Below, one piece after another: positions 50,160 through 58,339 of a stretch of 64,000 nt of DNA (its first letter is position 1; each line of letters begins with the position of its first letter). A program made the translations under genes and the position numbers. This DNA is from a phage. The stretch lies in sequence record PZ296772.1, one strand, 5' to 3'. The notes under the pieces were generated by a model. It saw only the letters and a program-made list of their open reading frames with translations, made no database searches and was not told the origin of the DNA.

Positions 50160-50199
50160 GTATACAAGCCTATAGGGATATGATATAGTAGTCCTATCA
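50160..50199 (+). promoter_or_regulatory. early promoter, degenerate copy of stem-loop cassette
   Basis: GTATAC, 18 nt, TATAGT, then TAGTCCTATCAA. Confidence 0.55.
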
Positions 50200-50226
50200 A
50201 AACAAATGAGTAAATGGAGAAATAAA

Positions 50227-50412
50227 ATGAAACGCGCTGAACTGATTCGTAATGTTGCTGTAGTAATTGCTTCAATGGCCTTTAGTTTTTCGATGTTTGT
50301 AGGATTCATTTGTGGACTACTGACAACAACAGAAAATTCTATCTCATTGGTAGTAGCATTTCTAATCGGTTTAATCGCTATTGTTATGGATAAAATTGCA
50401 AAAGGTGAGTAA
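50227..50412 (+). CDS. small membrane protein
   Basis: ORF 50206..50412 trimmed to ATG after GGAGA; two hydrophobic segments; early promoter upstream. Confidence 0.5.
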   Translation: MKRAELIRNVAVVIASMAFSFSMFVGFICGLLTTTENSISLVVAFLIGLIAIVMDKIAKGE

Positions 50413-50775
50413 ATGAAATATCATGTATATGCAGATTTTGAAGCAAATCCTTCTAAAGACCCTGATTGTCGTTTGATACGCAGACCATTTGATTCAGCAG
50501 CTCAAGCATGGGCTTGGATTAAAACTTGTACTCCTTCTTACACTTTCTTTGAAGTGGTAGACGATAACGGTGTTCTGCATCCAGAACCTACAGAAACTAT
50601 TAATTTCCTTCTGTTTGCTGGATATGACTGTTATCCTCTTGGCGGTATTGACGACCTTGTTGCTACAGGAAAAACTGTTGAGGCTCTTCGCGAAATTTAT
50701 AAAAACGCAGAAGAAAATTTTGACTGGTATCATATTGTTGATGCTCATACCTTTGAAGTGGTGGAACACTCATGA
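50413..50775 (+). CDS. hypothetical protein
   Basis: 120 aa ORF, start overlaps previous stop. Confidence 0.55.
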   Translation: MKYHVYADFEANPSKDPDCRLIRRPFDSAAQAWAWIKTCTPSYTFFEVVDDNGVLHPEPTETINFLLFAGYDCYPLGGIDDLVATGKTVEALREIYKNAEENFDWYHIVDAHTFEVVEHS

Positions 50776-51062
50776 TTCTTTATGCTAAAGTAAAATCTGT
50801 CGAGAATGGATATGAAAGCGATCAACGTGCAGCTAAAGCACTAGTTAATGACTATGGTATTCTGACTAACTTTGAGGTTGAAAAGGTTTATATCGACCGT
50901 TCATCTTCGCAAGTTAAATTACTCTGTGAAGATGATAAATTTAACACAGTTAACTTTGATTTCTTTATTGAAACAGAAAAAGGCCCTCTTGAATATGATA
51001 TTTTCAAGAATCCTTTGAAATTACGTTGCATTGAATATAATTACATTAATATGGTACGGTGA
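50772..51062 (+). CDS. hypothetical protein
   Basis: 96 aa ORF overlapping previous stop. Confidence 0.5.
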   Translation: MILYAKVKSVENGYESDQRAAKALVNDYGILTNFEVEKVYIDRSSSQVKLLCEDDKFNTVNFDFFIETEKGPLEYDIFKNPLKLRCIEYNYINMVR

Positions 51063-51066
51063 GTAA

Positions 51067-51582
51067 ATGAATATTTGTTTAGGCAGTACAATTCCTAAGG
51101 GTTACGTAATTGATGTCACTACTTATGAAAATGATGGTGACAACTATAAAACCAAAACATTGTTTGAAGTGGAAGAGCATGAGCTCCAACAGTTTAAATA
51201 TCTTTTGAAGAAATTTAAGAGTCGTCATTCCAGCACTAAAGCTGAACGTTACTGTGGTAATACACCATTCAGTGATTGCTCGCTTTTAATCTACGAATAC
51301 TTGGTTGAAGGACTGTTCTCAGACCAGCTTTATCCAGAATTCATTAAAAAGGTCTTTGATATTGAAGTCGACCTTGGTAATAAATCTGAAGAAGACGAAT
51401 CGCGTGTATTCGACCTGTTCCGTGAGAATGGATATTTAGTATCAGAAGGTCTCGTTGGTATTCTTGGTCATGCTTCTGAATATTATGATTATGATTTCTT
51501 GCGTGTAGTTGAATGTGTTGAATTTGCTTATATTGAAGAAGAAATCGTTTTGCCAACTGTTAAAATGATTGATTTGCTTTAA
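51067..51582 (+). CDS. hypothetical protein
   Basis: 171 aa ORF in compact early operon. Confidence 0.55.
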   Translation: MNICLGSTIPKGYVIDVTTYENDGDNYKTKTLFEVEEHELQQFKYLLKKFKSRHSSTKAERYCGNTPFSDCSLLIYEYLVEGLFSDQLYPEFIKKVFDIEVDLGNKSEEDESRVFDLFRENGYLVSEGLVGILGHASEYYDYDFLRVVECVEFAYIEEEIVLPTVKMIDLL

Positions 51583-51661
51583 GAATTATGTGTTATTATT
51601 AATTCATACCATCTATTACCAAAGGTGCTCTAAAGTGCCTTTCATAATAGAAAGTTATTTA

Positions 51662-51735
51662 GGCCCTGTAGCTCAACGGTTAGCAGCAGTCCCCTCATAA
51701 GGGAAAGGTTACCAGTTCGAATCTGGTCTGGGTCA
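51662..51735 (+). tRNA. tRNA, anticodon CAT (Met or Ile2 type)
   Basis: Hand-folded cloverleaf: acceptor GGCCCTG/CTGGGTC (one mismatch), T arm ACCAG-TTCGAAT-CTGGT, anticodon loop CTCATAA; 3 bp D stem. Confidence 0.6.
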
Positions 51736-51741
51736 TATATT

Positions 51742-51818
51742 CGAGGCATAGCTCAATTGTATAGAGCAACGGACTTCTAATCCGTAGGTTGAAGGTTAGA
51801 ATCCTTCTGTCTCGACCA
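51742..51818 (+). tRNA. tRNA-Arg (anticodon TCT), CCA encoded
   Basis: Clean cloverleaf: acceptor CGAGGCA/TGTCTCG, D arm GCTC..GAGC, anticodon arm ACGGA-CTTCTAA-TCCGT, T arm GAAGG-TTAGAAT-CCTTC, then ACCA. Confidence 0.85.
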
Positions 51819-51836
51819 ACTTTAAGTGAGGAAAAT

Positions 51837-56564: not shown

Positions 56565-56573
56565 GGAAACCAT

Positions 56574-56771
56574 ATGTCTCGTGAATTAGATTGTGCTGTA
56601 CGTACCGCGGTAGCTGCTCTAGAAAACCTGTTCCAAATTGCAACAGAAGAACGCGAAGAAGTTACATTATGGATTGAAGATAACGCAGGTCTGAATCTCC
56701 AGGACGCGATCTCATTATCTAATAATAGCATTACTGTTCAAGGCTGGGTATCGTCTAGTTATTCTTGCTAA
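56574..56771 (+). CDS. hypothetical protein, tandem paralog 3 (C-terminal QGWVSSSYSC)
   Basis: 65 aa; junction conserved. Confidence 0.5.
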   Translation: MSRELDCAVRTAVAALENLFQIATEEREEVTLWIEDNAGLNLQDAISLSNNSITVQGWVSSSYSC

Positions 56772-56775
56772 AACA

Positions 56776-56814
56776 GTTTACAATAAGATAGGACTATGTT
56801 ATAGTAGTCCTATC
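56776..56814 (+). promoter_or_regulatory. early promoter with palindromic stem-loop cassette
   Basis: GTTTAC, 18 nt, TATAGT; inverted repeat GATAGGACTA / TAGTCCTATC identical to 49843-49870. Confidence 0.65.
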
Positions 56815-56833
56815 AAATTAAATGGAGTCCGCA

Positions 56834-57073
56834 ATGATTTATTACGAAAGTATCGGAACCAAAGTGGTTGGTAAAACCATTACTCGTGAAAAGTTTGCAA
56901 AGATATTCGATATGCGTTATAAAAAATCTGAACACAAAGGCATCCGATTCGAAGATGCGCACTGTGCAATTTGCCCTTATAATGAAGACGTAAATGGTAC
57001 AATCGTTCCATTGGTAGAGGCTTCACATGATGACCTCTGGGATGAATATAATATCGCATGTCGTGAAATTTAA
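56834..57073 (+). CDS. hypothetical protein
   Basis: ORF 56822..57073 trimmed to ATG after GGAG; early promoter upstream; CAIC Cys pair. Confidence 0.5.
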   Translation: MIYYESIGTKVVGKTITREKFAKIFDMRYKKSEHKGIRFEDAHCAICPYNEDVNGTIVPLVEASHDDLWDEYNIACREI

Positions 57074-57101
57074 GTTAATGAATTAATCCGAGGAAAATAT
57101 T

Positions 57102-58058
57102 ATGATGTTAGTTATTGGTTCTCGTGCACTTCACTATCATGGTCTTATTGATTCTAGCGCTATCAAAAATAGTGATTGGGACTTTATTGCAGACCAAGGT
57201 TCTTGGAATGCATTCAAAAATCAAATGATGGGTGTATATGTTCATCAAGATAACCCTGATGTCCAAGTTTTCAAATGCTTCCATAATGGACGCGAAACTC
57301 ATTTTGAAGCATATATTGTTCCGGCAATCACTAATGTCCGTGAATTAGTCGGTGAACTCACTCCTGAAGATTTCACGTCTTCTTATGACCTTTTAAAATA
57401 CGCCAAGAAAAATTTGACTAAAGACCGTTTGACCGGGTTTTACTGGGCAACTCCTGAGATATGTCTTGCAATTAAAATGTCTCATCGTTTCAAGAAAAAT
57501 AATCCATTCTTTTTAAAGACTATGAACCATATTCAGTATCTTCGCGGTAAAGGTGTTACACTGAACGATGAACTTACTGAAATTATGCTGAAACGCCAGA
57601 AAGAAACTTTGAACTATGCTCACCCGGTTCTTGACACTTCTAAAAGTGCGTTCTTTAAAGATGACATCTATACATATGACCATGATACTATTCATGAAGC
57701 CATTGCACTAACTGACCAGCCTGCTTATAAGTTTTATATGAAAGAAGGCTCAGAAGTTATGACATCACGCGAGAAGTTCGAATCATTACCAGAAATGGTT
57801 AAATTAGCCGGTGTATATGAAGAAGCTTGTGTATTAGCTCTTGAACGTTCACAGATTCCTAACGACTTTAAAATCCATCCGAGTGATAGTTTTATGATGG
57901 CCCTTGAAAAGGTCTGTACATCAATCACATCAGGATGGTTCCGTGAGTTCGCTTGGGAAAATTATAGCAAAGTAGTAAGTATGTACCAAAGCTTAGGACA
58001 TGACGATTACGTCAAGCGTTTCAAACAAAACTTTCATATGGTAAAACCTTTCAAATAA
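57102..58058 (+). CDS. hypothetical protein, possible nucleotidyltransferase-like N-terminus
   Basis: 318 aa; GAGG SD; N-terminal GS..(x17)..DWD pattern loosely like the pol-beta NTase signature. Confidence 0.5.
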   Translation: MMLVIGSRALHYHGLIDSSAIKNSDWDFIADQGSWNAFKNQMMGVYVHQDNPDVQVFKCFHNGRETHFEAYIVPAITNVRELVGELTPEDFTSSYDLLKYAKKNLTKDRLTGFYWATPEICLAIKMSHRFKKNNPFFLKTMNHIQYLRGKGVTLNDELTEIMLKRQKETLNYAHPVLDTSKSAFFKDDIYTYDHDTIHEAIALTDQPAYKFYMKEGSEVMTSREKFESLPEMVKLAGVYEEACVLALERSQIPNDFKIHPSDSFMMALEKVCTSITSGWFREFAWENYSKVVSMYQSLGHDDYVKRFKQNFHMVKPFK

Positions 58059-58070
58059 TTTCACAAAACA

Positions 58071-58100
58071 GTTTACAAGGTCTGTAGTTGTTGATACTAT
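58071..58100 (+). promoter_or_regulatory. early promoter (sigma70-type)
   Basis: GTTTAC, 18 nt, TACTAT; leader 58103-58135 near-identical to 50192-50226. Confidence 0.65.
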
Positions 58101-58138
58101 AGACCTATCAAAACAAATGAGTGAATGGAGATATAAAA

Positions 58139-58339
58139 ATGACTACTTTGAATAAACGTTTCGGTAAAGCTAAACCTGGTTGTGCAGCAGAACGTCGTTA
58201 TGTTTTCGCTCAGTTAGAAGATGTAGAGTATCAGATTAATCAAGTTCACATTACTGGTATCGAGCCTATGTGTGGCCTTGAAGCTCTTCGTGAAGTTCGT
58301 GATGGGTATCGTCGTGACATCGAAGAAATGTCAAAATAA
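58139..58339 (+). CDS. hypothetical small protein
   Basis: ORF 58121..58339 trimmed to ATG (MTTLNKRF); leader shared with the 50227 gene. Confidence 0.5.
   Translation: MTTLNKRFGKAKPGCAAERRYVFAQLEDVEYQINQVHITGIEPMCGLEALREVRDGYRRDIEEMSK

Follow-up and report, generated by a model that had tools for sequence, protein, structure and literature searches.

Repeated early-promoter cassettes in an RB69-like T4-type phage: probable PeSL-type elements that double as homology for recombination

Regulatory elements named PeSLs (promoter-early stem-loops) are known from the phages RB49 and phi1, for which promoter and attenuator activity was demonstrated; their stem-loops often overlap the -10 box, and the crossovers of PeSL minicircles lie between the -10 box and the Shine-Dalgarno (SD) sequence or ATG (Arbiol et al., 2010, Genome Biol Evol 2:140, PMC2839356). 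PeSLs were also reported for T4/PST, with the promoter TTTACW-N17-TAYWAT, and for KVP40/nt-1 (Comeau, Arbiol & Krisch, 2014, Genome Biol Evol 6:1611, PMC4122927). According to the account given in PMC2839356, PeSL-like elements with T4 early promoters occur at the internal-protein (IP) loci of T-even phages (Repoila et al., 1994, EMBO J 13:4181). In the papers searched, a description of PeSLs in RB69-type phages was not found. Here, a family of 14 repeated cassettes is described in a 64,000-nt stretch of the phage sequence record PZ296772.1, the full length of which is referred to as the window. Megablast searches with positions 50000-58400 and 49300-59500 matched more than 840 T4-type phage records, the top matches being Mosigvirus (RB69-like) coliphages at ~96% identity over the full length, which identifies the source as an RB69-like T4-type coliphage (Mosigvirus). 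The repeats are very probably PeSL-type early-gene regulatory cassettes of this phage that double as portable homology for recombination.

A cassette family in front of unrelated genes

The 14 cassettes lie on the + strand within intergenic gaps and follow one plan, namely, from 5' to 3', about 30 nt of AT-rich, UP-like sequence, (G)TTTACA, a 17-nt spacer, TGn-TACTAT or TGn-TATAGT, the conserved putative start-site block nnYYTATCAA, an A-rich leader of 26-40 nt carrying a ribosome site (GGAG, GAGG or AGGA), and ATG. The general promoter form of the family is GTTTACA-17-TGnTAYWRT. The cassettes are given below, each interval starting at the -35 box, with the free energy (dG, kcal/mol) and z-score of those hairpins that enclose the -10 box.

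1731-1794, + strand: further family member, has TACTATCATCCTATCAA in common with the ipI cassette
17061-17122, + strand: distant cassette copy, RB69ORF188c-like early gene 17120-17389, antisense between late genes 24 and 23
49478-49543, + strand: ipI cassette, gene 49541-49828 (PHROG internal virion protein); TTTACA-17-TACTAT; hairpin 49486-49512, dG -15.4, z -4.1; upstream/-35 block common to 58072
49833-49896, + strand: cassette of the internal-head-protein-like gene 49894-50157; hairpin 49841-49872, GATAGGACTA / TAGTCCTATC around TGTTATAGT, dG -18.4, z -5.4
50161-50229, + strand: tRNA.4 cassette, gene 50227-50412; weakened -35 box (TATACA) and degenerate hairpin; leader 50193-50226
53100-53158, + strand: cassette of gene 53156-53461; carries TGATACTATAGACTTATCAAC, then diverges
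53471-53532, + strand: cassette of gene 53530-53694 (protein begins MTTL); 47 nt identical to the 17080 cassette
53684-53743, + strand: cassette of the frd.3-like gene 53741-53968; forms hybrids with the 53471 cassette in relatives without gene 53530
53969-54041, + strand: cassette of an e.6-like gene; TTTACA-17-TATAAT; hairpin 53981-54004 (GAGAGC/GCTCTC), dG -13.8, z -3.4; site of an insertion junction in SA79RD
56777-56836, + strand: cassette of gene 56834-57073; hairpin 56787-56814, dG -16.6, z -5.6; contains the 31-nt exact repeat of 49843
58072-58141, + strand: four-way mosaic cassette of gene 58139-58339 (MTTL); hairpin 58078-58106, dG -15.5, z -4.0; leader 58104-58138
58341-58398, + strand: cassette of gene 58396-58701; hairpin 58350-58379, dG -18.2, z -3.9
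61365-61425, + strand: further family member, precedes a gene that we take to be denV-like
62106-62168, + strand: further family member, precedes another internal-protein gene (MKTYKEFITE...)

The family was detected by self comparison of the window, the check that the original prediction had proposed for its claim of reused leader blocks, using exact words of 14 nt against mononucleotide shuffles. Direct matches of at least 14 nt numbered 59, compared to 8-20 in the shuffles, and 12 of the 15 matches of at least 17 nt lie wholly inside the early-promoter cassettes; the 13th is a terminator-like repeat around gene 52568-53032. The cassette repeats include a 47-nt exact direct repeat at 17080/53490 that runs through ATGACTA, a 31-nt repeat at 49843/56787, a 23-nt repeat in three copies (49850/56794/58358), a 22-nt repeat at 49856/50184, the 21-mer TGATACTATAGACTTATCAAC at 17081, 53119 and 53491, and a 19-nt repeat at 49465/58059. 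With 19-47 nt, these repeats extend well past the shared -10 consensus. The leaders at 50192-50226 and 58103-58135, which had been called near-identical, indeed are so: when 50193-50230 is aligned with 58104-58142, within 1-2 nt of those coordinates, 36 of 39 columns are identical, with two mismatches, one 1-nt indel and a 19-nt exact run, CCTATCAAAACAAATGAGT. Likewise, the 53119 block diverges from the 17081/53491 cassettes only after the 21 nt that it had been said to share with them.

Allowing at most one mismatch, the extended motif TAYWRTNNNYYTATCAA occurs 14 times in the window as compared to 1.95 expected, and none of 100 shuffles reaches 14. A generic sigma-70 promoter scan of 49-59.5 kb showed no enrichment (40 sites vs 35 ± 7); in scans of this kind, only its own extended motif brings out the family. 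Exact-pattern scans of the IMG/VR viral contigs for the two longest blocks gave zero matches. A 55-nt query from the 17080 cassette matched 719 places in 267 phage records of a GenBank phage collection, and its matches at ~85% identity include sites adjoining alc, denV and frd.3 in other T-even genera.

The genes behind the cassettes are of different kinds. Ten proteins encoded downstream of cassettes fall into ten different PHROG families, and BLASTP found no similarity within the three pairs whose leaders or first codons are most alike. The repeated leader blocks are thus confirmed, and the view that the same 5' untranslated blocks are placed before different genes is supported.

Within the common plan, the spacer measures 17 nt in 13 cassettes and 16 nt in one, the -35 box reads TTTAC in ten, TGTACA or TATACA in three and TTTACG in one, and TGn precedes the -10 box in 9 of the 14. 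Judged by these boxes, the cassettes would carry the strong sigma-70 early promoter of T-even PeSLs (TTTACW-N17-TAYWAT), and they fit the 'uber' UP/-35/TGn/-10 promoter of T4 early genes (Hinton, PMC2988021). As in PeSLs, the 30 nt upstream of the -35 box are AT-rich, with a GC content of 0.28 vs 0.38 in the window (0 of 2000 random samples were as low), and all 14 cassettes have a ribosome site (GGAG, GAGG or AGGA) 5-10 nt upstream of the ATG. The AT-rich stretch often contains the stop codon of the upstream gene, and TAA or TAG stops lie 0-10 nt from the -35 box in several cassettes. Moreover, the concentration in hyperplastic regions of small non-essential ORFs that is typical of PeSLs was found here too: 10 of the 14 cassettes lie in the ipI-tRNA-e.x region at 49.4-58.4 kb. 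This variable region, with ipI, tRNA.4-tRNA.1, the tRNAs and e.x in that order, makes up 14% of the window and is among the classic hyperplastic early regions of T4-type genomes. Ribosome sites consisting of GGAG and an A-rich tract form the class cut by RegB (PMC3014915), and those of the cassettes would fit this class; compared by eye, the leaders match the RegB site GGAGRAYARAA at only 8-9 of 11 positions, and RegB cleavage is a plausible constraint on them.

Besides the repeats, the shared leader block (50206-50226, 58117-58138) has an upstream ATG (ATGAGTRAATGGAGA...), which is in frame with tRNA.4 at 50206 and, because of the 1-nt indel, out of frame at 58117. It is unlikely to be coding, and it inflates mechanical open reading frame (ORF) calls (68 aa vs the annotated 61 aa). 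The interval 17061-17389, made up of an early cassette that is 47/47 identical to one located 36 kb away and an 89-aa RB69ORF188c-like gene (phrog_6003), stands in antisense orientation between genes 24 and 23, which are late capsid genes, and is thus a moron-like early insert within the block of structural genes. The two remaining matches of at least 17 nt are located outside the cassettes. One is the 18-nt palindromic, terminator-type repeat GGGAGACCGAAGTCTCCC at 17400-17417 and 36747-36764, the former copy being situated just past the 17120 gene, where the PhAPEC2 annotation has a bidirectional terminator. The other is the 18-nt exact repeat AATAAAGGAGTTAACATG, consisting of a ribosome site and start codon, at 8399-8416 and 54667-54684, i.e., at two otherwise unrelated gene starts.

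Hairpins and likeness to described elements

In six of the 14 cassettes, the spacer is complementary to the -10/discriminator block, and the resulting hairpins enclose the -10 box (-13.8 to -18.4 kcal/mol, z -3.4 to -5.6). Two cassettes have longer-range stems to the ribosome site and six have no significant hairpin. The stems around the -10 box represent four different sequences, GGATGAT/ATCATCC, GATAGGACTA/TAGTCCTATC, GAGAGC/GCTCTC and GGTCTGTAG/CTATAGACC, and since they stand in different registers relative to the -10 box, with loop centres up to 4 nt apart, a single consensus structure would be meaningless. At the equivalent of 49478, the GenBank record of SA79RD has a 'T4 early promoter' and an overlapping 'rho-independent terminator', the latter by prediction only.

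A different pairing was seen at 61365-61414 and 53100-53148, where the -35-proximal spacer is complementary to the SD region of the cassette's own gene (UCCUCCAAG...CUUGGAGGA and CUUCUUCU...AGAGGA, respectively). At these sites, the ribosome site would be hidden in read-through RNA coming from upstream but would stay free in RNA from the cassette's own promoter. The early/late control of T4 gene e is a known system that resembles such hiding.

The cassettes resemble the PeSLs of RB49 and phi1 in their intergenic position, AT-rich upstream sequence, strong early promoter, stem-loop often over the -10 box (here in six of the 14), SD sequence and ATG, as well as in their location in hyperplastic regions, where they flank single ORFs that differ between close relatives, and in crossovers that lie between the -10 box and the SD sequence or ATG. 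By contrast, the promoter is of T4 type here (GTTTACA, TAYWRT, TATCAA block) and near-perfect TTGACA/TATAAT there, the stems are AT-rich (GATAGGACTA, GGATGAT, GAGAGC) instead of polyG/polyC, and the minicircle and reporter data come from RB49 and phi1. With the PeSLs of T4/PST they have in common the promoter consensus, the subfamily and the tie to ORF exchanges and deletions, but the PST stem-loops sit immediately upstream of the promoter (AGNA-loop-TCNT), whereas the strong stems described here span the spacer and the -10/discriminator. As far as they are portrayed in PMC2839356, the elements of the T-even IP loci have weaker, AT-rich stem-loops of variable size and flank interchangeable IP genes. 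The cassettes at 49478, 49833, 50161 and 62106 sit in exactly such loci; unlike those elements, the present family also spans the e.x region and the gene 23/24 site. Finally, the Botstein-Campbell linkers and 'morons' of lambdoid phages are comparable in that short conserved sequences between modules target exchange and single genes come with their own promoter, with the difference that here the conserved sequences are themselves the homology used for exchange.

Mosaic cassettes and gene exchange in close relatives

Block-wise comparison of the cassettes, combined with an exact-repeat search, revealed that adjacent blocks within a cassette differ in their nearest relatives and meet at sharp boundaries. 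In the 58072 cassette, the upstream/-35 block matches the ipI cassette with a 19-nt exact run (49465) while its spacer agrees with that of 49478 at only 3/14 positions, the -10 block is that of the 17081/53119/53491 family, the discriminator matches the 49833 and 50161 cassettes at 15/16 positions, the leader matches that of 50161 (tRNA.4), and the first 11 coding nucleotides of its gene are those of gene 53530. Similarly, the 17061 and 53471 cassettes agree at 9/26 positions upstream and 6/14 in the spacer and then at 47/47 up to ATGACTA. In AV117 and PhAPEC2, the two relatives checked, the 17061 cassette does not differ from that of the window, and relatives that retain the 53490 copy show no change in it between the -10 box and the ATG; neither copy therefore offers informative variation on concerted evolution of the 17080/53490 pair.

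For comparison with close relatives, BLASTN of positions 49300-59500 against eight Mosigvirus loci was used. The + strand order, taken from annotated relatives, is gene 1, 57A, 57B, ipI, a variable internal-protein slot, tRNA.4, tRNA.3, tRNA.2 and an ORF, followed by tRNA-Met and tRNA-Arg (51662-51818) and by small RB69ORF1xx/frd.3/e.6-e.2 genes. Across the eight loci, single genes are present, absent or replaced, and the ends of these differences cluster in the cassettes, as indel ends do in PeSLs: 13 of 31 distinct breakpoint ends fall in cassettes, which account for 10% of the DNA (p = 4.5e-6). Three further ends lie at or near the 19-nt terminator-like repeats listed below, and two lie at the end of the first codons shared by internal-protein genes.

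52509-52527, + strand: terminator-like 19-nt repeat GGTTGGGGCTTTTTGGTAT, copy 1; flanks the replaceable gene 52568-53032
53052-53070, + strand: terminator-like 19-nt repeat GGTTGGGGCTTTTTGGTAT, copy 2

Hybrid cassettes were found exactly where relatives differ in gene content. In relatives without gene 53530, the frd.3-like gene keeps its own leader, now joined to the promoter of 53471 at GAGGAG|AAACAAA in AV117 and TATCAA|ATCAA in phiC120 and G2285, and these two different join points imply at least two independent events. Gene 49894-50157 is absent or replaced in six of the eight relatives; where it is absent, tRNA.4 has the upstream/-35/hairpin half of the 49833 cassette and the leader of 50161, joined inside their shared 22-nt repeat. 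Shf125875 and LF82-3 have tRNA.4 with an altogether different cassette. In all, the tRNA.4 cassette was seen in three different versions. Furthermore, in relatives without gene 58139, gene 58396 has a cassette in which the 58072 upstream/-35 block passes into a type-A core at the -35 hexamer, and in mar005P1 and Shf125875 the 53684 cassette differs by a patch of three substitutions (AATCAC to AGTCCT) that looks like a short-patch conversion from a type-A cassette.

Crossovers were placed at the -35 box, in the -10/TATCAAAAC tract that cassettes have in common, at TATCAA, at the ribosome site and, in internal-protein genes, at codons 7-12; this variation speaks for exchange driven by homology and against a site-specific one. 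This bears on the original prediction that promoter cores, leaders and first codons are exchanged independently: exchange is indeed seen in the relatives, but not of discrete units, since the crossovers lie wherever cassettes have homology in common. The exchange of first codons is solid for the internal-protein genes, whose homology with the replacement IP genes of relatives continues through the first 7-12 codons and then breaks (ends of the high-scoring segment pairs (HSPs) at 49563 and 49930). The case originally put forward, the ORFs at 53530 and 58139, does begin with MTTL in both members (ATGACTACTTT), and it is the sole pair with at least 8 nt in common after the ATG among ~3000 gene pairs of the window, where 0.03 such pairs are expected among the 91 cassette pairs; taken alone, it is marginal evidence for first-codon exchange.

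The internal-protein genes at 49541-49570, 49894-49930 and 62136-62165 have first codons in common that encode MKT(Y/F)xEFI, which we take to be the N-terminal capsid-targeting sequence of T4 internal proteins. Gene 52568-53032, located between the two copies of GGTTGGGGCTTTTTGGTAT, has an unrelated gene of 627 nt in its place in mar005P1, LF82-3 and AV117. Terminators thus seem to serve as exchange linkers as well, and the terminator-like repeats recall the GGGC/GCCC motifs at T4 deletion ends (Mosig, 1998, as cited in PMC2839356). Deletion ends having neither a cassette nor an obvious direct repeat were observed for the e.3-like gene (55637-55888) in phiC120 and LF82-3 and for gene 56292-56564 (56297-56529) in G2285, so that part of the plasticity is not cassette-mediated.

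Mechanism, alternative explanations and meaning

In the explanation that we propose, host sigma-70 RNA polymerase would start about 7 nt past the -10 box, so that the cassette's own mRNA would begin near ATCAA. This mRNA would lack the 5' arm of the hairpin, which would consequently form only in RNA reading through from upstream and, by analogy with the RB49/phi1 experiments, probably attenuates or insulates read-through or stabilises upstream 3' ends. At the DNA level, the many cassettes sharing 20-50 nt would provide portable homology for the very active general recombination of the phage, for which, by published statement, homology of less than 50 bp suffices. When two cassettes recombine unequally, the single gene between them would be deleted, inserted or replaced and hybrid cassettes would be left behind, while short-patch conversion and repeated rounds of exchange would make the cassettes themselves mosaic. 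As an outcome, one leader block would stand before unrelated genes, and one gene would have different leaders in sister phages. The repeat family, its hairpins, the unrelated cargo genes and, in relatives, the hybrid cassettes and clustered breakpoints are directly seen in this scheme, and what we infer is that the cassettes act as promoters and attenuators, which enzymes recombine them and whether circles occur as intermediates.

Some observations weigh against it. More than half of the breakpoint ends (18 of 31) lie outside the cassettes, which are thus one exchange route among several, and the ends of BLAST HSPs place crossovers only to within the shared homology. Among the six cassettes with no significant hairpin are the 47-nt pair and that of tRNA.4, the leader of which had been the first block of the original prediction; blocks can therefore be shared without the hairpin, and published PeSL sets contain degraded '1/2' elements as well (PMC4122927). 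In addition, the stems are not followed by a T run, and a simple terminator scan of 49-59.5 kb calls no cassette hairpin on the + strand, which makes the attenuator role uncertain.

The repeats might alternatively result from pure convergence, in which strong early promoters and translation-initiation regions were selected to one optimum (UP, -35, TGn, -10, start site, and an A-rich ribosome site with GGAG of RegB/S1 type) and no DNA was exchanged. The consensus positions are indeed common to all cassettes, T4 early promoters have extra conserved positions beyond the sigma-70 elements (PMC2988021), and GGAG with an A-rich tract behind it is selected in early leaders as a target of RegB (PMC3014915). 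However, the exact identity over 19-47 nt covers spacer and leader positions that vary freely in other cassettes, identical sequence gives way abruptly to unrelated sequence, and hybrid cassettes sit exactly at the gene indels of relatives; already contradicted by these junction alignments, convergence is very improbable. Paralogy of the cassette genes was rejected in view of the ten PHROG families and the lack of BLASTP similarity in the tested pairs, and since the cargo proteins are unrelated, duplication of a gene together with its promoter does not explain the repeats. For this reason, old duplications, in which the regulatory parts stayed the same and the coding parts became unrecognisable, are extremely improbable despite the cassette and the first 7-12 codons that internal-protein genes share: one or two nucleotides are enough for identity to fall from 100% to background, and the blocks of a single cassette have different nearest relatives.

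A site-specific system resembling integrons, with a dedicated recombinase or structure-specific nuclease that recognises the hairpin and moves cassettes via circles, would accommodate the inverted repeats around the -10 box in six cassettes, their complementarity being kept in four different sequences, as well as the single-gene modules that come and go among relatives; moreover, encapsidated PeSL minicircles were found by Arbiol et al., who speculated on a specific DNA-binding protein (PMC2839356). It is nevertheless quite unlikely, as the crossover points differ between events, fitting homology-driven exchange, the longest shared blocks (17080/53490) have no hairpin, and a recombinase was not seen among the annotated neighbours, where it was not searched for in depth. 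An unlikely, related possibility is that the -10 hairpin starts the exchange, for instance as a cruciform that is cut by the phage's structure-specific nuclease of the endonuclease VII type and seeds recombination-dependent repair from another cassette. If this were true, the Mosigvirus cassettes would be semi-autonomous, structure-targeted sites of gene shuffling and not passive homology.

Taken all together, PeSL-type cassettes that provide homology for general recombination remain the preferred explanation. The phenomenon is the published PeSL mechanism, proposed and partly demonstrated in 2010-2014, of which the window offers a clean but ordinary example that opens no new question; its one small variation is that the stem lies over the -10 box, as in RB49, although the promoter is of T4 type. 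For annotators and comparative pipelines, similarity of promoters and leaders in these regions says nothing on the relatedness of genes, and indel boundaries will fall in repeats. For RB69-type phages, the cassettes illustrate at base resolution the ways in which small early genes enter T4-like genomes, are lost from them and are re-wired. Many such genes probably have functions in host takeover or anti-defence, as exemplified by the injected internal proteins.

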